Source of the DNA: Solirubrobacteraceae bacterium
Lineage (GTDB): Bacteria > Actinomycetota > Thermoleophilia > Solirubrobacterales > Solirubrobacteraceae
DNA length: 31,661 nt
Direction: 5' to 3'
Assembly: GCA_035264745.1 (NCBI GenBank)
Contig: DATFPO010000213.1
Coordinates: forward strand, 1-31,661
A model generated the notes under the pieces. It saw only the letters and a program-made list of their open reading frames with translations. It was not told the DNA's origin and searched no databases. The translations under genes and the position numbers were made by a program. Below are positions 14,499 to 22,576 of the stretch, piece by piece; within the stretch, counting starts at the first letter, position 1; each line of letters begins with the position of its first letter.

Positions 14499-15482
14499 TC
14501 AGGCGTAGCGATCCACCACGCCGTCGGCGATCAGCTGCAGCGCCTGCAGCTGCGCCGCCGGCAGCGGGGGGAGCGTCGCCCGCGCCTCGGCCACCATCTC
14601 GAGCGCCAGGCGCCTGGCGTCCTCCAGCGCGCCCGTGGCCTCGATCGCGTCGCACACGGCCTCGGCCCGGTCCGCGGCGGCGATCTCCCGCAGATCCAGC
14701 CGCGCGACGTCATCCGAGCGCTGGCGCGCCAGGATCAGCGGCAGCGTGACCGTGCCGTCGAGCAGGTCGGCGCCGCGCCGCTTGCCGGTGCGCTCGGGCG
14801 GGCCCGAGACGTCCAGCACGTCATCGAGCACCTGGAAGGCCAGGCCGATGCCGCGGCCGAAGGCCGCCAGCTCCCGGACCCTGGCGCCGTCGGCGCGGCC
14901 CTCCAGGGCGCCGAGCCGGCAGGCCGCCTCGAACAGCGCGGCGGTCTTGAGCTCGCACCGGCGCAGGTAGCGCTCCACGGTGACCTCCGGGTCGAAGGCG
15001 TCGGCTCGCTGGAGCAGCTCGCCGCCGGCCAGCGCGGTGGACGCCGCCGACAGCGCGCGCACCTCGTCGCGGCGCCGGTTCAGCGCCAGCTCGGCGAACG
15101 CGCGCGAGAACAGCAGGTCGCCGGTCGCGGTGGCCATGGCACGCCCGGCCGAGGCGACGACAGTGGAGCGCCCGCGCCGCAGGTCCGCCGCGTCCAACAC
15201 GTCGTCGTGGACCAGCGTGGCGGAGTGGACCAGCTCGACGGCGGCCGCCGCCCGCACCAGTCCCTGTCCGTCGTCCCCATGATCGCCCGCCGCGACGAAC
15301 ACGACCAGAGGCCGGAGCCGCTTGCCCCCGGCGGCGATGGTGTCTCCGGCGTGACCGGCCAGGACCTCGCCGTGGCCGGCGGCGAGCTCGGCCAGGCGTT
15401 GCTCCAGGGCCGCCATGAGGCCGCGGATGTGGGCGCCGGCGGCGTCCACGACCGCCTCCACCGCCGGCGCGACCGCGCTCAC
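14499..15482 (-). CDS. hepT: Long-chain trans-polyprenyl diphosphate synthase (HepT-like catalytic subunit)
   Basis: GGKRLRP, first motif ELVHSATLVHDDVLD + LRRG, KTAALF, second motif AFQVLDDVLD; GTGA overlap with menG. Confidence 0.9.
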   Translation of the reverse strand: MSAVAPAVEAVVDAAGAHIRGLMAALEQRLAELAAGHGEVLAGHAGDTIAAGGKRLRPLVVFVAAGDHGDDGQGLVRAAAAVELVHSATLVHDDVLDAADLRRGRSTVVASAGRAMATATGDLLFSRAFAELALNRRRDEVRALSAASTALAGGELLQRADAFDPEVTVERYLRRCELKTAALFEAACRLGALEGRADGARVRELAAFGRGIGLAFQVLDDVLDVSGPPERTGKRRGADLLDGTVTLPLILARQRSDDVARLDLREIAAADRAEAVCDAIEATGALEDARRLALEMVAEARATLPPLPAAQLQALQLIADGVVDRYA

Positions 15483-16240
15483 GTCGAGACCTCTCCCACG
15501 TGGATGGCGATGATGCCGCCGGCGGTCACGATCCACCTTACGCGTTCCAGGCCGCATTGCCTCATGGCTGCGGCCAGGTCCCGGGGCCCGGGAAACCGTC
15601 TCACCGAGCTGGGCAGGTAGGTGTACGCGTCGTGGTCACCCGCCATGCGGCCGAGTGCCGGCACCAGGCGGTCGAACCACAACCGGTAGAACCACGAGAG
15701 CGGCGGCCTCTGCGGAGTGGTGATCTCGAGGATCACCACGCGGCCGCCTGGACGCACCACGCGGGCCATCTCGGCCAGCCCGCGGTGCAGGTCGGCGAAG
15801 TTGCGGGCGCCGAAGCCGGCCGTCGCCGCGTCGAAGCAGGCGCCCGGATAGGGAAGCGACATCGCATTGCCCCACTCGAACGAGACCTCGGCGCCCGGCA
15901 CCGGGTCGGCGGACGACTTTGCCCGCGCCCGGTCGAGCATCGCCTCGGAGAAGTCCGACCCCACCACCCGGCCGCCCGGGGCGACCCGCCTGGCCAGCTC
16001 GGCGGCGAGGTCGCCAGTCCCGGTGGCCACGTCCAGCGCGCTGCCGCCCGGCTCGAGCGCCGCCAGGTCGGCGGCCCGGCGGCGCCACTCGCGGTCCAGC
16101 CCGGCCGTCATCACCGCGTTCATGCGGTCGTAGACGCCGGCGATCCGGTCGAACATGGCGCGCACCTGACGCTCCTCGAGCACGCCGGCGGACGGGTGGG
16201 CGCCGGGAGACACCGGCTCGCGCACGGCGGCGGGGGTCAT
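15479..16240 (-). CDS. menG: Demethylmenaquinone methyltransferase
   Basis: VRAMFDRIAGVYDRMN, LDVATGTGD, DFSEAML, GFGARN, EMARVVRPGGR, AYTYLPSSV. Confidence 0.95.
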   Translation of the reverse strand: MTPAAVREPVSPGAHPSAGVLEERQVRAMFDRIAGVYDRMNAVMTAGLDREWRRRAADLAALEPGGSALDVATGTGDLAAELARRVAPGGRVVGSDFSEAMLDRARAKSSADPVPGAEVSFEWGNAMSLPYPGACFDAATAGFGARNFADLHRGLAEMARVVRPGGRVVILEITTPQRPPLSWFYRLWFDRLVPALGRMAGDHDAYTYLPSSVRRFPGPRDLAAAMRQCGLERVRWIVTAGGIIAIHVGEVST

Positions 16241-16253
16241 CGCTGACGCTCCG

Positions 16254-16979
16254 CTACTTGAGGGTCGAGAGGAAGTGGACGAGGGCGTTGAACTTCTGGG
16301 GCGGAAGGTCCTTGAACGAGGGCATCGGCGCGGTGGGGTTCTGGAGCGTCCGCGCGATCGCCTCCTTGGGGAGCCGCTGGGCGATCTTGGTGAGGTTGGG
16401 CCCGGGGCCGTCGTTGCCGTTCTCGCCGAACTTGTGACAGGCCAGGCAGCCGGACTGCGCTGCCACCTTCTTGCCGGCGTTGAACTGGGCCAGGGCGGCG
16501 CCCTTGACGTCCGACGGCGGCTTGGCCTCGATCTGGGTCGGTGAGCCCGCGATGGCGCCGGTGTACGTGAGGTAGGCCATGGCCACGATCGTGAAGATCC
16601 CGGCCATGGTGGCGATCGGGCGCCGCTCCGGGCGCCGCTCCGGGCTGCGGTCGTAGAACGGCAGCAGGATCAGCAGGATCAGGCACAGCGTGGGAATCCC
16701 GATGGCGGCCAGCGGGACCAGCTCGCGCGGCTTGATCACGCGCAGCAGCTCGAAGAGGAAGAAGAAGTACCACTCGGGTCGGGGGACGTAGGTGGTGGTG
16801 GTCGGATCGGCCTTGGGGCCCAGCTCGGCGCCCAAGACGATCGCCATGGCGATGATCGTGATCATCACCACGACGGCCATGGCGGAGTCCTTGGCCACCG
16901 CGTAGGGGAAGAACGGCTTGCCCTGGGCCTTCAGGAGGCTGTAGTCCCGGAGGTACTGCTCCTTCTCGCTCTGGTTCAC
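16254..16979 (-). CDS. qcrC: Cytochrome bc complex subunit IV (PEWY) fused to monoheme cytochrome c
   Basis: GKPFFP, PRPEWYFFFLF, LLPFYDRS, CLACH heme-binding motif, distal MPSF; GTGA overlap. Confidence 0.9.
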   Translation of the reverse strand: MNQSEKEQYLRDYSLLKAQGKPFFPYAVAKDSAMAVVVMITIIAMAIVLGAELGPKADPTTTTYVPRPEWYFFFLFELLRVIKPRELVPLAAIGIPTLCLILLILLPFYDRSPERRPERRPIATMAGIFTIVAMAYLTYTGAIAGSPTQIEAKPPSDVKGAALAQFNAGKKVAAQSGCLACHKFGENGNDGPGPNLTKIAQRLPKEAIARTLQNPTAPMPSFKDLPPQKFNALVHFLSTLK

Positions 16980-17803
16980 CCGACCTCCTGCCGGCGCAGG
17001 TCCTCGGGCGTCTCGGCCTTGAGCCACGGCGGGGCGGTCGTCCCCAGCTTGGCCACCAGGTAGAGATGCGCCCCGATCAGCGCGGCGATCGCGCCGGGGA
17101 CCAGCAGCATGTGGACCGAGTAGAACCGCGACAGGGTGGTGGCGCTGAACTCCGGGCCCGCACGCAGGAAGTCGGCCAGGAACGGCCCCAGGATGGGCGC
17201 GGTGCCGTTGAGGTTCACCGCCACTATCGTGGCCCAGTAGGACCGCTGGTCGAAGGGCAGCAGGTACCCGGTCAGCGACATCATCATGGTGAGGACGAGC
17301 AGCACCACGCCGATCACCCAGTTGAGCTCACGGGGGTACTTGTAGGCGCCGAAGAAGAACGTCCGCGCCATGTGCAGGAAGATCAGCACCATCATCGCGG
17401 TGGCTCCCCACTTGTGCATGCCGCGTACGAACTCGCCCAGGAACACGTCGTTGGTGAGGTGGCGGGCGGACTCGTAGGCCCGGGTGGGCGATGGGTCGTA
17501 GTACATGGCCAGGAAGACCCCGGTGACCGCCTGCGACAGGAAGGCGAACATCGTCGCCGAGCCGAGGGTGTAAAACCAGTTGGTCCCCTTGGGGACCTTG
17601 CGGAACATCATCCAGCGCAGGCTTCCCGACAGGGAGGTGCGCTCGTCCACCCAGTCCACGACGCTGATCCCGGCCTCCTTGCCGGCGGTCACCGCGGTAT
17701 GGCGCGACGAGACCTGCCCGTTTGCGCCGTTGCCGTCCCCGGGGCGCCTCGGCCTGGGGTTGAGCGCCCTGGGCATGGGCGGCCTGGGCAGCTTGAGGTT
17801 CAT
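16976..17803 (-). CDS. qcrB: Cytochrome b6-type (short, split) cytochrome b
   Basis: WVDER, RGMHKWGA...FLHMAR, YKYPRELNW, TGYLLPFDQRSYWA, LSRFYSVH...AHLYLV. Confidence 0.95.
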   Translation of the reverse strand: MNLKLPRPPMPRALNPRPRRPGDGNGANGQVSSRHTAVTAGKEAGISVVDWVDERTSLSGSLRWMMFRKVPKGTNWFYTLGSATMFAFLSQAVTGVFLAMYYDPSPTRAYESARHLTNDVFLGEFVRGMHKWGATAMMVLIFLHMARTFFFGAYKYPRELNWVIGVVLLVLTMMMSLTGYLLPFDQRSYWATIVAVNLNGTAPILGPFLADFLRAGPEFSATTLSRFYSVHMLLVPGAIAALIGAHLYLVAKLGTTAPPWLKAETPEDLRRQEVG

Positions 17804-18489
17804 CCCGAACCCTTAACGCCCGGCGGGGCGGACGGGGTCGAGAACCGCCCCGGATAGGCGTACTGGCCGATGCCGTCCACCGCCTCGCCGGGATCGCGGG
17901 GTGAGAAGCGGCGCAGGTGGGAGTTGACGCTGTACCGGGGCCCGATCTCCACGCGGCCGCCGCGCACCCGGGTGTAGAAGCGGTCGAGCGGGCGCACCGG
18001 AGGCCCTCCCGCCACCTTGCCCTGGAAGTCGTAGACGCCGCCGTGGCAGGGGCAGACGAAGCGCGTCGAGGCCTCGATGTAGCGAACCGGGCACCCCAGG
18101 TGGGCGCAGCGGGTGGAGATGGCCACGTAGGCGTCGTAGCGGTCCTTGGGCGGGCCGTCGATCGAGGGGTTGTGCTTGCGCAGGTAAACGGTGCTCTTGC
18201 CCGCCTCGCCGATCCCCGGCGTCACCGTGACCACCCGGGGTACGTAGGTGGTGTCGGGAAACTCGCCCACCGCGCCGACGTCCTCCCAGCGCGCCTCGCC
18301 GCGGTCGAACACCGGTCCCAGCGCGAAGCCCAGCGCCGGCAGCGCGAAGGCGGCGACCGCGATTCCCCCGAGGGCCTGGGCGCTTCCGGTCATGAAGCGC
18401 CGGCGGGTCACCGTCTCGCCCTCGAACGCGCCCGGGATGTTCCGGTTTGCGGTGTAGGGAGACTGTGGTTCGGGGCGGGTATCGGGCAC
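17800..18489 (-). CDS. qcrA: Rieske 2Fe-2S subunit with Tat signal anchor
   Basis: TRRRFM twin-arginine motif + TM helix; CAHLGC and CPCHGG boxes; GPPVRPL. Confidence 0.95.
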   Translation of the reverse strand: MPDTRPEPQSPYTANRNIPGAFEGETVTRRRFMTGSAQALGGIAVAAFALPALGFALGPVFDRGEARWEDVGAVGEFPDTTYVPRVVTVTPGIGEAGKSTVYLRKHNPSIDGPPKDRYDAYVAISTRCAHLGCPVRYIEASTRFVCPCHGGVYDFQGKVAGGPPVRPLDRFYTRVRGGRVEIGPRYSVNSHLRRFSPRDPGEAVDGIGQYAYPGRFSTPSAPPGVKGSG

Positions 18490-18583
18490 GGCTAGGTGGG
18501 GAGAGCAGTCGAATTCAATGGGCCCGGAAGGGTACCGTCAACATGGCGACGGTCGGCACAAGCGGCCCTCGCGCAGGCCGAGA

Positions 18584-19135
18584 TTAGGCTTTTCGCGGCC
18601 GGCGCTCGCGGGCCGCGCGGGCGGCCGAGCCGAGGGCCTGCGCGGCTCCCGGTCGCCCCTCCCGGACCATTGCCTTGGCCCGGTGGTGGGCCTCGCCGCC
18701 GCCCCAGCCGACCGCGACCGCGCCCGCCTCCCAGACCGCCTCGGCCAGATCCCGGTCGCCCGCCGCCTGGGCCTGCGCGGCCAGCGAGATGACGTCGGCG
18801 AGCTCCGCCACCGCCTCCAGGTCGCCCAGGTGGGCCAGGCGCGACAGGCCCAGCGCGTACAGCTGGTCGCCTAGCAGGAGCGCCAGGTTGGGGTCGCCGG
18901 GATGTACCAGCGCACCCGCCTGCTCGTAGTGCAGCCGGTAGCCCTCGTGGATCATGTCGATCAGCAGTTCGTACTCGGCTCGCCGTCCGTCCACCCGCGG
19001 CCCGGCGGCCGCCAGCCTCGCCGGGCCGTCGGGCGCGTCGTCGGCGGGCTCCCGCACGACGGCCGCGAGCAGGGGGCCCTGGTCGAGTAGCTCGCGGTAC
19101 AGCCGCCGCAGCCCGTCCGCCGGCGCCGCGCTCAT
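18584..19135 (-). CDS. Hypothetical protein; probable catalytically inactive trans-prenyltransferase-fold (HepS-like) subunit
   Basis: IDMIHEGYRLHYE and LALLLGDQLYALGLSRLA align with VELVHSATLVHDD and ATATGDLLFSRAFAELA of hepT; ATGA overlap with hemL. CDS confident, function inferred. Confidence 0.7.
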   Translation of the reverse strand: MSAAPADGLRRLYRELLDQGPLLAAVVREPADDAPDGPARLAAAGPRVDGRRAEYELLIDMIHEGYRLHYEQAGALVHPGDPNLALLLGDQLYALGLSRLAHLGDLEAVAELADVISLAAQAQAAGDRDLAEAVWEAGAVAVGWGGGEAHHRAKAMVREGRPGAAQALGSAARAARERRPRKA

Positions 19136-20415
19136 GGCACCCGCTCGAACGCCGCGGCCGCGGCCGCGGCCGTGCGCTCGACATCCGCGTCGGTGTGCGC
19201 TAGCGACGGAAACCAGGCCTCGAACTGCGACGGCGGCGGATAGACGCCGTGCTTGAGCAGCGCCCGGCACCAGGCGGCATGGGCCGCCAGATCGCACTCC
19301 CGCGCCCCAGCGTAGTCGCGAACCGGGTCCGGGCTGAAGAAGACCGTGAGCAGCCCCGGGGCGCTCTGGACCTGGACCGGGCGGTCGCCGGCCGCGGCCC
19401 GGAGGGCGTCGGCCAGAGCCTGGGTGAGCTGACCGAGCCGGATGTAAGCGTCGTCGTCGAGCAGGGACAGGGCCACGATGCCGGCGGCCGCCGCCACCGG
19501 ATTCCCGGACAGCGTCCCCGCCTGGTAGACGTCGCCGGCCGGCGCGATTCGCTCCATCAGCTCGCGGCGGCCGCCGAACGCCGCGCCGGGAAGGCCGCCG
19601 CCGATGATCTTGCCCATGACGGTCAGGTCGGGCCGCACGCCGGCCAGCTCCTGCGCGCCGCCCCGCGCCACCCGGAAGCCCGAGATCACCTCATCGAAGA
19701 TCAGCAGGCAGCCGTTGGCGTCGGCCGCCGCCCGCAACGACTCCAGGAACCCCGGCTCGGGCGGGACCAGGCCCATGTTGGCCGGGTAGGGCTCGGCCAG
19801 GATCGCCGCCAGGTCGTGCTCGTCCACCGCCGCCTCCAGCGCCGCCCGGTCGTTCCAGGGGATCACCACGGTCTGGGCCGCGACCTGGGCCGGAACGCCG
19901 GGGCTGGCGGGTATCCCCTGCGTGGCCAGGCCCGAGCCCGCCGCCGCCAGCAGCCCGTCGACATGGCCGTGATAGGCGCCGGCGAACCTGAGCACCAGGT
20001 CGCGGCCGGTCACCGCGCGGGCCAGCCGGACCGCGCTCATCGCGGCCTCCGTCCCCGATGAGGTCATGCGCACCATCTCCACCCCCGGCACGCGCTGTAC
20101 CAGCTCGGCGGCCAGCTCCACCTCGACCGCGGTCGGGGCCCCGAAGCTGGTCCCCCGCTCGGCGGCGGCCTGGATCGCGGCGACCACCGCGGCCGGCGCG
20201 TGGCCGTGGACCAGCGGCCCCCAGGAGCACACCCAGTCCAGGTAGCGGTTGCCGTCCACGTCGACGATCTCCGCTCCCTCCCCCCGCTCGATGAACAGCG
20301 GGTCGCGGCCGATCGAGCGCATGGCCCGGACCGGCGAGTTGACGCCCCCGGGCAGCAGGCCGACGGCGCGCGCGTACAGCCGCTTTGAACCGGCGTCGGT
20401 CAGCGGCATGGTCAT
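19132..20415 (-). CDS. hemL: Glutamate-1-semialdehyde 2,1-aminomutase
   Basis: PGGVNSPVRA, DWVCSWGP, SFGAPT, SSGTEA, YHGHVD, IFDEVISGFR, MGKIIGGGLP, YQAGTLSGNP, PPSQFEAWF. Confidence 0.98.
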   Translation of the reverse strand: MTMPLTDAGSKRLYARAVGLLPGGVNSPVRAMRSIGRDPLFIERGEGAEIVDVDGNRYLDWVCSWGPLVHGHAPAAVVAAIQAAAERGTSFGAPTAVEVELAAELVQRVPGVEMVRMTSSGTEAAMSAVRLARAVTGRDLVLRFAGAYHGHVDGLLAAAGSGLATQGIPASPGVPAQVAAQTVVIPWNDRAALEAAVDEHDLAAILAEPYPANMGLVPPEPGFLESLRAAADANGCLLIFDEVISGFRVARGGAQELAGVRPDLTVMGKIIGGGLPGAAFGGRRELMERIAPAGDVYQAGTLSGNPVAAAAGIVALSLLDDDAYIRLGQLTQALADALRAAAGDRPVQVQSAPGLLTVFFSPDPVRDYAGARECDLAAHAAWCRALLKHGVYPPPSQFEAWFPSLAHTDADVERTAAAAAAAFERVP

Positions 20416-20499: not shown

Positions 20500-21582
20500 T
20501 CAGGCGTGCTCGCGCTCCCAGCGCCGGAAGTCGTCGGTGAAATACAGGAGGCGGACCTTCTTGTACTCGGTCGAGGAGTACAGCGTCGCCCTCTCCTGGA
20601 TCCCGGTTCCCTCGGCGATCGAGTCCAAGACCGCGTCGCACTCCTCCTGGGAGCGGCCGTGGGCCATGGTGAAGATCGAGTACGGCCAGTCGCGATAGGT
20701 CGGGCGCTGGTAGCAGTGCGAGATGCCGCGGAAGGCGGCCATTTGGGGGCCCAGCTCGGCGATGCGCTCGTCGGGCACGTTCCACACCCCCATGCCGTTG
20801 GCCGAGAACCCGGCACGGCGGTGGTAGAGGATCCCGGCCACGCGGCGCAGCAGGCCGCGCTCGCGCATGCCGGTCATGTGGTCCAGCAGGCGTTCGACCG
20901 GCACCCCGAGCTGCGCGGCGGCCGGCGCGTAGGGCTCCGGCGCCACCGGCAGGTCGCCCTGCGTGGCCCGGATGACCGCCACGTCGAAGTCGTCGAAGGG
21001 CTGCTTCTCCAGCTCAGCCGGTTCCTGAGCCACCCCCGCCGAGGCCAACGCCTCGGTGCCGCCCTCCATCTCGAGGTCCATCCGGATCTTGAACAGCTTG
21101 AGGGTGGGCAGCTGGCGCACCGACTCGGCGCCGGTGAGGTCCCGCAGGAGGTCGAGCGTCCCGTCCAGCCCCAGGCGCGAGTCCTCCTCGACCGCGATCG
21201 TGAACCACAGGTTGAACTCGTGGTTGCGCAGGTAGTTGTGCGACACACCCGGGTGCGAGTTGATGACCTGCGCCGCCCGGTGCGGGTACTCGGGGTCCAC
21301 CTTGGCCGCGACCAGCATCGAGCGGTAGCCGAGGGCCCGCGTGTCGTAGATCGGCGTGACCTGGCGGATGATGCGCTCGTCGATCAGGCGCGATATCCGC
21401 CTGAGCGCCTCGTCCTCGTCGATGCCCGCGTCGGCCGCGATCCCGGCGTACGGCCGCGGCTGGAGCGGGAACCGGCTCTGGACGAGGTTGAGCAGCCGGC
21501 GGTCCAGGTCGTCCAGGGCGACCGCCGCCCCGCCGCGCCGCGAGCGGATCTTGGCAACCGGCGCTTGGCCGCGGGCGCTCAC
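20500..21582 (-). CDS. ahbAB: Fused siroheme decarboxylase AhbA-AhbB (NirDL/NirGH-like, two Lrp/AsnC-like halves)
   Basis: Half 1: Q.RFPL.PRPY...VSHNYLR.HEFNLWFTI. Half 2: QGDLPV.PEPY...HRRAGFSANGM.VW...ISHCYQRP...WPYSIFTMAHG. Located between hemB and hemL. Confidence 0.9.
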   Translation of the reverse strand: MSARGQAPVAKIRSRRGGAAVALDDLDRRLLNLVQSRFPLQPRPYAGIAADAGIDEDEALRRISRLIDERIIRQVTPIYDTRALGYRSMLVAAKVDPEYPHRAAQVINSHPGVSHNYLRNHEFNLWFTIAVEEDSRLGLDGTLDLLRDLTGAESVRQLPTLKLFKIRMDLEMEGGTEALASAGVAQEPAELEKQPFDDFDVAVIRATQGDLPVAPEPYAPAAAQLGVPVERLLDHMTGMRERGLLRRVAGILYHRRAGFSANGMGVWNVPDERIAELGPQMAAFRGISHCYQRPTYRDWPYSIFTMAHGRSQEECDAVLDSIAEGTGIQERATLYSSTEYKKVRLLYFTDDFRRWEREHA

Positions 21583-21595
21583 CCGGCGCGCCGCC

Positions 21596-22576
21596 TCAGA
21601 CCCGGGCCAGCCAGGACGCGACGTCCTTGGCGTGATAGGTGACGATGATGTCGGCGCCCGCGCGCCTGATCCCGGTGAGCGCCTCGAGCACCGCCGCCCG
21701 CTCGTCGAGGTGCCCCGCGGCGGCGGCCGCCTTGACCATGGCGTACTCCCCGCTCACGTTGTAGGCCGCCACCGGCAGGCGGACCGCGTCGCGGACGCGG
21801 GCGATGACGTCGAGGTACGGCAGCGCCGGCTTTACCATGACCATGTCGGCGCCCTCCTGCGCGTCCAGCAGCGCCTCGCGCACCGCCTCGCGGGCGTTGG
21901 GCGGGTCCATCTGGTACGAGCGCCGATCGCCGAACGCCGGCGCCGAGTCGGCCGCCTCGCGGAACGGCCCGTAGAACGCCGACGCGAACTTGGCCGAGTA
22001 GGCGATGATCGGGGTGTCGCTGAGCCCGTCCGCGTCCAGCTCGGCGCGGATCGTTCCCACCCGGCCGTCCATCATGTCGCTGGGCGCCACCGCGTCGGCC
22101 CCGGCGTGGGCCTGCGAGACCGCCGTGCGGGCCAGCAGCTCGACGCTGGCGTCATTGTCGACGCTGCCGTCCTCGCGCAGGCGGCCGCAGTGGCCGTGGT
22201 CGGTGTACTCGCACAGGCAGACGTCGGTGATCACCAGCAGCTCGGGGCGGGCCTCCTTGATGGCCCGGGTGGCGAGCTGCGCCACCCCCTCGTCGTCCCA
22301 GGCGCCGGACCCGTCGGCGTCCTTGGCGGCGGGGATCCCGAACAGCAGGACCGCCGGGATGCCGAGTTCGGCGGCCTCGGCCGCCTCCTCGACCGCCGCC
22401 GAGATCGACAGGCGGCTGATGCCCGGCATGGAGTCGATCGGCTGGCGCCCCTCGGCCCCCAGCGCCACGAACATCGGGTAGACCAGCCGGCGCACGTCGA
22501 GCTCGGTCTCCCGCACCAGCTCGCGCAGGACCCCGGACTTGCGCAGGCGCCGGAGGCGCGTTTGCGGAAAGGCCAT
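21596..22576 (-). CDS. hemB: Porphobilinogen synthase (Zn-type)
   Basis: [64 protein letters not shown]. Confidence 0.99.

Follow-up and report, generated by a model that had tools for sequence, protein, structure and literature searches.

A candidate non-catalytic small subunit of a HepS/HepT- or HexA/HexB-type prenyl diphosphate synthase encoded at the junction of haem and menaquinone genes in Actinomycetota

The hypothetical protein X183 (183 aa) is probably the non-catalytic small subunit of a two-component, medium-chain trans-prenyl diphosphate synthase of the HepS/HepT or HexA/HexB type. Its gene lies in a run of haem, respiratory and menaquinone genes (Table 1) within the window, i.e. 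the whole 31,661-nt stretch of Solirubrobacteraceae DNA that was analysed. In bacteria, C30 and C35 trans-prenyl synthases are known as a class made up of a catalytic and a non-catalytic subunit (i.e. HexA/HexB and HepS/HepT; PMC7839719). The major quinone of cultured Solirubrobacter and Conexibacter is MK-7(H4), which carries a C35 chain (PMC10722151, PMC3035278). A search of the literature found no description of the X183 family, or of heteromeric synthases in Thermoleophilia.

The coding status of X183 was examined using base composition, substitution patterns and homologue searches. GC contents at codon positions 1, 2 and 3 of the frame were 0.88, 0.52 and 0.92, and an excess of third-position substitutions was observed against seven orthologues, indicating that this frame, and not an overlapping 230-aa ORF, is the gene. 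The alternative ORF (18492-19184, minus strand) belonged to no family, exhibited the wrong codon-position GC pattern and was rejected. The ATG of X183 overlaps the TGA of the hemL ORF (ATGA, within gtgccATGAgcg), confirming in the sequence the overlap on which a sequence-only reading of this DNA had based a coupling of the two genes. A word-indexed search returned >2000 homologues, all unnamed, of which the labelled ones were from Solirubrobacterales/Solirubrobacteraceae, and an exhaustive profile search placed about 850 clusters (50% identity) in the family, again unnamed. X183 is, therefore, a real and conserved gene. Several proteins of the representative library (P0170, P0227, P0244, P0236 and others) appeared to be fusions and were considered as Rosetta-stone evidence, but were set aside, as the second domain was either uninformative or only a fragment of hemL; these fusions look like mis-called high-GC ORFs. 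Nine residues (E64, G65, H69, L87, G89, D90, A94, G96 and W135) are invariant across the class and fall in the motifs EG(Y/F)xLH(Y/H) and LLxGDxxYAxGL.

Table 1. Features of the window on either side of X183, listed in their order along the minus strand
Feature	Coordinates	Strand	Domain matches and remarks
hemB (ALAD)	21596..22576	-	PF00490 at 1.5e-146
Fused AhbA/AhbB-like (NirDL-type) siroheme decarboxylase	20500..21582	-	PF17805 + PF22451, two copies each
hemL-like class-III aminotransferase (glutamate-1-semialdehyde aminomutase type)	19132..20415	-	PF00202 at 5.7e-66
X183, 183 aa	18584..19135	-	Asp-motif-less; N-terminal half of trans-IPPS fold (predicted); candidate non-catalytic small subunit (HepS/HexA-like)
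Rieske Fe-S subunit (qcrA-like)	17800..18489	-	PF00355 at 8.9e-10; follows X183 after 94 nt
Cytochrome b, N-terminal, b6-type	16976..17803	-	PF00033 at 9.7e-49
Cytochrome b C-terminal/subunit IV fused to c-type cytochrome domain	16254..17027	-	PF00032 at 4.9e-12, PF13442 at 1e-8
UbiE/MenG demethylmenaquinone methyltransferase	15479..16240	-	PF01209 at 2.9e-61
HepT-like catalytic trans-polyprenyl diphosphate synthase, both Asp-rich motifs	14499..15557	-	PF00348 at 1e-57

The minus strand of the window reads hemB, AhbA/B-like decarboxylase, hemL, X183, Rieske, cytochrome b, cytochrome b-C/c, MenG, HepT-like, small ORF and tatC. X183 and the qcrABC-menG-hepT genes share this strand, as had been noted earlier, and the proposed hepS-[qcrABC]-menG-hepT arrangement was recovered, with the hepS-like X183 followed by qcrABC and then by menG-hepT. 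No sigma-70-like promoter or terminator was found between hemL, X183 and qcr. The best NCBIfam match of the HepT-like protein was TIGR02748 (GerC3_HepT; 6.6e-57, below its cut-off), and its PDB relatives were IspB, S. aureus HepPPS, B. subtilis HepT and HexB (1e-46 to 1e-40). As this protein (P0002) is about equally similar to the homodimeric IspB and the heteromeric HepT/HexB, nothing in HepT itself indicates a need for a partner. The longest ORF of HepT opens with an ATG at 15557, which adds a 25-aa Arg/His-rich extension and a 79-nt overlap with the end of menG; the true start is probably downstream, because the sequence-only reading took 15482 and the Pfam match starts at residue 72. The bc-type complex (16254-18489) is split in b6f style into a short cytochrome b and a separate subunit-IV-like protein with a c-type domain, and a terminator-like hairpin is present inside the cytochrome b gene (17582-17597). 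The AhbA/AhbB-like decarboxylase adjoins hemL in most relatives, and these gene assignments hint at a siroheme-dependent haem route in the class to which X183 belongs.

Homology of X183 to prenyl synthases was investigated using pairwise, profile and HMM-HMM comparisons. No Pfam family matched X183 at E <= 0.1, including PF00348, PF07307 and PF22538. The sole NCBIfam match was a sub-threshold one to TIGR02749 (solanesyl-PP synthase; E 0.045, residues 81-120), and a PDB sequence search with profile A1 (i.e. the order-level X183 alignment) returned only 2ftz (E 0.59); both of these weak single matches fall on the same X183 helix. Two weak genome matches of the A1 profile were to amidohydrolases and were dismissed as chance. 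Alignment of A1 to an 18-sequence HepT alignment using hhalign gave a probability of 52% (P 1.4e-4), and the class-wide X183 alignment (A2) gave 82.9% (P 9.2e-6) over 159 columns. Within the A2 alignment IHEGYRLH was paired with VHSATLVH, LLLGDQLYALGLSRLA with ATATGDLLFSRAFAELA and EAVAELAD with DEVRALSA. The by-eye match of X183 to the polyprenyl synthase downstream, from which the sequence-only reading had started, was thereby reproduced on the same helices by profile, but the pairwise similarity was not significant (BLASTP against the in-window HepT-like protein, E = 18). A whole-genome HMM search with A2 recovered the cognate HepT genes of about two dozen genomes at E-values of 1e-5 to 1e-3. 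Additionally, the ESM-Atlas feature neighbours of X183 outside its own family were PF07307 HepS and PF22538 HexPS-like clusters (score 0.90-0.91).

The same alignment shows which catalytic elements are missing. His69 of X183 is aligned to the His preceding DDxxD, and H69-Y70-E71 stands in place of HDD, in agreement with the HYE replacement that had been noted by eye. A gap of ~10 residues then spans DDxxD to RRG; the RRG is indeed missing, but the loss previously described as a deletion of the LRRG loop is part of this one gap shared with DDxxD and not a separate event. No Asp-rich motif is conserved in A1 or A2 (DDAPD, residues 32-36, belongs to a variable loop), and the protein ends before the helix that carries the Asp residues of the SARM; the second Asp-rich motif is absent, as had been claimed, and so is the GGKRxR motif for substrate binding. 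X183 is a remote trans-IPPS homologue that has lost FARM (DDxxD), the RRG loop and SARM (the second Asp-rich motif) and so cannot itself catalyse condensation. The earlier term 'paralogue' should be read loosely, as likeness to the HepT of the window is seen only by profiles and structure.

The structure of X183 was predicted using AlphaFold2 with A1, giving an all-helical model (pLDDT 94, pTM 0.89). The top Foldseek matches in the PDB were nearly all long-chain trans-IPPS, with probabilities of <=0.99 and weak E-values. When these matches were compared using VIA, Z values reached 12.9; 60 chains scored Z >= 8, and >30 IPPS clusters fell at Z 8-12.9. In an independent comparison with 48,161 PDB chains (cluster representatives), 9kp1_A ranked first (Z 11.9, rmsd 2.8 Å, 134 residues), with X183 residues 1-146 superposing on residues 3-165. 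As 9kp1_B is named 'Heptaprenyl diphosphate synthase component 2' (i.e. HepT), 9kp1_A is HepS, the non-catalytic subunit. HexA (3aqb_A) was matched at Z 9.9 with 120/135 residues aligned, and a plant GPPS small subunit and OsGRP at Z about 10. The structure tool cautions that Z values below about 13 in all-helical proteins, and thus those of X183 (10-13), may reflect a common helical arrangement; homology is the better reading because unrelated folds were cleanly separated (Z 6.3 or less) and because the HMM-HMM result is independent. Of the fold, the model retains the N-terminal half alone, i.e. the helix of the first Asp-rich motif and the next two (GDxLYAxGL and the following one). A comparison with isoprenoid synthase folds had been suggested as a check on the by-eye alignment; the predicted structure matches the IPPS fold, with HepS closest, and places X183 in the trans-IPPS superfamily (PF00348 clan) as a half-fold.

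The presence of X183 and HepT was scored in 151 genomes of the class that were at least 90% complete, with HepT orthologues defined by E <= 1e-40 to P0002. Both genes were found in all 12 genomes of family f1, all 12 of f2 and the single genomes of f3, f79, f81 and f82. X183 and HepT were present in 27/27 and 26/27 genomes, respectively, of f4, 27/27 and 25/27 of f80, and 24/25 and 22/25 of f7, and each in 16/17 of f6. Thus, both genes occur in 10 families, and both are absent from f5 (0/26 each), the co-absence being essentially one clade-level event (f5) plus two single genomes. No genome among the 151 carried a HepT orthologue without X183, and the X183-only genomes listed are fragmented assemblies; the co-occurrence proposed as a test of the pairing was therefore observed. 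By elimination, G406 is the one f6 genome that lacks both genes; the X183 and HepT loci are not linked in that family. Genomes of f5 retain hemL and UbiD while missing X183 (G089 keeps hemL-Rex-UbiD), and those examined (G030 and G089) possess one PF00348 gene each, which shares 30-31% identity with HepT and does not adjoin menG. This gene is long-branched and branches beside the clade of a second ('b') PF00348 paralogue, not with HepT; the f5 loci concerned are L053, L078, L058 and L060. A 'b' paralogue of roughly 300 aa is present in every examined genome with X183. Genomes of f1 and f2 (98-100% complete) contain X183 and HepT and have no UbiD, and none was found in the window's own genome (79% complete). 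The combination of f5 (hemL and UbiD, no X183) and f1/f2 (X183, no UbiD) indicates that X183 tracks HepT and not UbiD or hemL.

Gene order was then compared among relatives. The arrangement hemL, X183, Rieske, cytochrome b, cytochrome b-C/c, menG, hepT, tatC is conserved in the taxonomic order to which the window belongs. The step from hemL to X183 is kept in all X183-bearing families examined and is the most conserved adjacency, and menG adjoins hepT in every examined genome with a HepT orthologue. X183 and Rieske are separated in f4 and f7 by a UbiD-family gene, and both families carry a gene for a UbiX-type flavoprotein ahead of menG. The order in f6 is hemL, Rex, X183, UbiD, UbiA, with no qcr genes near X183 and with menG-hepT on a different contig. 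A diverged X183 homologue of 168 aa in G015 directly follows hemL and overlaps the start of UbiD. X183 always lies where haem genes meet menaquinone/respiratory genes, but is not always near hepT. In the window it shares strand and cluster with menG and HepT; qcrABC is interposed. Two features of this arrangement count against the small-subunit reading: X183 is 3 kb from hepT, with qcrABC and menG between them (and on another contig in f6), and it is translationally coupled to hemL, and in f4 to UbiD, rather than to hepT. The tightest physical linkage of X183 is to hemL (and to UbiD in other families), not to hepT. Late menaquinone steps seem to differ within the class, as f1/f2 are without UbiD while f4, f6 and f7 have UbiD together with UbiX (f4, f7) or UbiA (f6); genomes G045, G145, G275, G236 and G288 and that of the window were used for this comparison.

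Small subunits of known two-component synthases resemble X183 in architecture. HepS of B. subtilis (GerC1, PF07307, 9kp1 chain A) is likewise non-catalytic, lacks Asp-rich motifs and has an N-terminal half-fold, and its gene is also upstream of menG-hepT in a menaquinone cluster, the product class being C35/MK-7. HepS is, however, longer (251 aa as compared to 183 aa, of which residues 1-146 alone superpose), and PF07307 does not detect X183. The X183 gene differs from hepS in having qcrABC (and UbiD/UbiX in other families) before menG-hepT and in its translational coupling to hemL, and X183 is from Actinomycetota (Thermoleophilia by the names of homologues) whereas HepS is from Bacillota. With 143 aa, HexA of Micrococcus luteus B-P 26 (3aqb chain A, PF22538) is a small helical protein that has half of the IPPS fold and lacks catalytic motifs, as is predicted for X183; its synthase makes C30, and no sequence similarity to X183 is detectable (13% identity once the structures are aligned). 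The hexA gene is found in the order hexA-menG-hexB. Eukaryotes also have catalytically inactive proteins of the IPPS fold that modify what a catalytic partner makes or how active it is, namely the small subunits of plant heteromeric GPPS, OsGRP and PDSS2/Dlp1. These differ from X183 in their nearly full-length folds, in the chain lengths concerned and in their CxxxC interaction motifs, and no specific sequence relationship to X183 was found. As X183 is by sequence a member of neither PF07307 nor PF22538, we class it as a putative new sequence family of the small-subunit kind.

The neighbouring genes raise other possibilities. X183 could be a soluble accessory that binds polyprenyl lipids (i.e. 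a chaperone or metabolon scaffold) and is not a subunit of HepT, passing polyprenyl diphosphate or prenylated naphthoate to a UbiA-type prenyltransferase or a UbiD-type decarboxylase. The UbiD-family gene directly after X183 in f4, f6 and f7, its overlap with X183 in G015 and the UbiA that also follows in f6 would fit such a role, and half of an IPPS fold might still accommodate a prenyl chain. We consider this unlikely, as X183 and UbiD are doubly dissociated (f1/f2 have the former without the latter, and f5 keeps hemL-Rex-UbiD without X183), X183 tracks HepT instead and its closest structural match, HepS, is part of a synthase. Lower still is the probability of a modulatory pseudo-subunit, either an inhibitor that titrates HepT or a partner of the 'b' PF00348 paralogue that changes its product in the manner of plant GPPS small subunits. 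This explanation draws on the second PF00348 gene of every X183 genome examined and on the structural matches to plant small subunits and OsGRP, but X183 is unlinked to the 'b' paralogue in all genomes examined, co-occurs with the HepT orthologue and is encoded within the menaquinone/respiratory cluster. A haem- or bc-complex-related factor, contributing to assembly or cofactor delivery, is highly improbable. The fold and profile homology point to prenyl synthases, f6 is without nearby qcr genes and f5 retains hemL without X183; these observations outweigh the ATGA overlap with hemL, the strong conservation of the hemL-X183 adjacency and the qcr genes directly after X183 in the window's order.

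As a small subunit, X183 would use its three strongly conserved helices to pair with the catalytic HepT-like protein whose gene follows menG. Those same three helices form the dimer interface of homodimeric IPPS, and X183 would stand in for the second protomer. Residues E64, G65, H69, G89, D90 and W135 would line the interface or the product tunnel. HexA has been proposed to set chain length jointly with the large subunit (PMC7839719). As in HexA/HexB, X183 may close the bottom of the tunnel such that elongation from FPP halts at C35, the outcome being the heptaprenyl chain of MK-7(H4). We infer heterodimerisation of X183 with HepT and a role for X183 in activity or in the C35 limit. This proposal provides a testable function for a family of ~850 clusters annotated as 'hypothetical' in abundant soil bacteria (i.e. 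Solirubrobacterales and relatives). If it is true, two-component medium-chain prenyl diphosphate synthases extend beyond Bacillota, and X183 represents a third, very diverged small-subunit lineage in which to study the control of product length by a catalytically dead half-fold, with relevance to MK-7 engineering and to annotation of quinone pathways in metagenomes. Actinobacterial menaquinone side-chain synthases are usually described as homodimers, a description that would then need correcting.

Weak matches of the X183 profile in another actinobacterial class led to P0273 and P0274, dead HepT paralogues of a type (170-280 aa) that is encoded directly beside hepT. P0273 (176 aa) has no Pfam family, and its gene overlaps the start of a 324-aa PF00348 gene. 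P0274 (278 aa) is matched by PF00348 with an E-value of 3.5e-11 and by PF07307 with one of 0.041; in the PDB it is closest to B. subtilis HepT (2.9e-18), with KHYA in place of VHDD. Each protein was matched to A2 with an hhalign probability of 93%, and the model of P0273 has the same half-fold as X183 (Z 12.1 to HepS and 11.8 to HexA). Short dead paralogues were nearly universal in 48 genomes of this sister class, usually 0.1-3 kb upstream of hepT, and two of them were weak matches of the HepS HMM. PF07307 itself was not matched above its cut-off in any of 301 Actinomycetota genomes, nor at E <= 1 in the window's genome. The sister-class paralogues share with X183 a His-(Tyr/Thr) in place of the HDD of FARM, an LxxGDYxYAxG helix and the half-fold, but differ in adjoining hepT or lying <=3 kb from it and in having no coupling to hemL; P0274 is also much less diverged than X183, as its matches to B. 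subtilis HepT and PF00348 indicate. These proteins form a graded series, from catalytic HepT through P0274 and P0273 to X183, which supports the small-subunit reading by association.

A broader scheme, which we regard as speculative and rather unlikely, is that X183 and the sister-class paralogues reflect two-component C30-C35 synthases as the normal state in deep-branching Actinomycetota, derived from repeated or ancient degeneration of HepT duplicates, with the invariant polar residues of X183 (E64, H69, D90 and W135) coupling chain termination to the hand-off of heptaprenyl-PP into an assembly line for haem, quinone and the bc-complex. Such coupling, if true, would explain the fixed position of X183 between hemL and the quinone/qcr genes. 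Distances of 2-3 kb between hepT and the dead paralogue are common in the sister class, and in G107 (L048, 9635-13692) ORFs of 106 and 593 aa occupy this gap.
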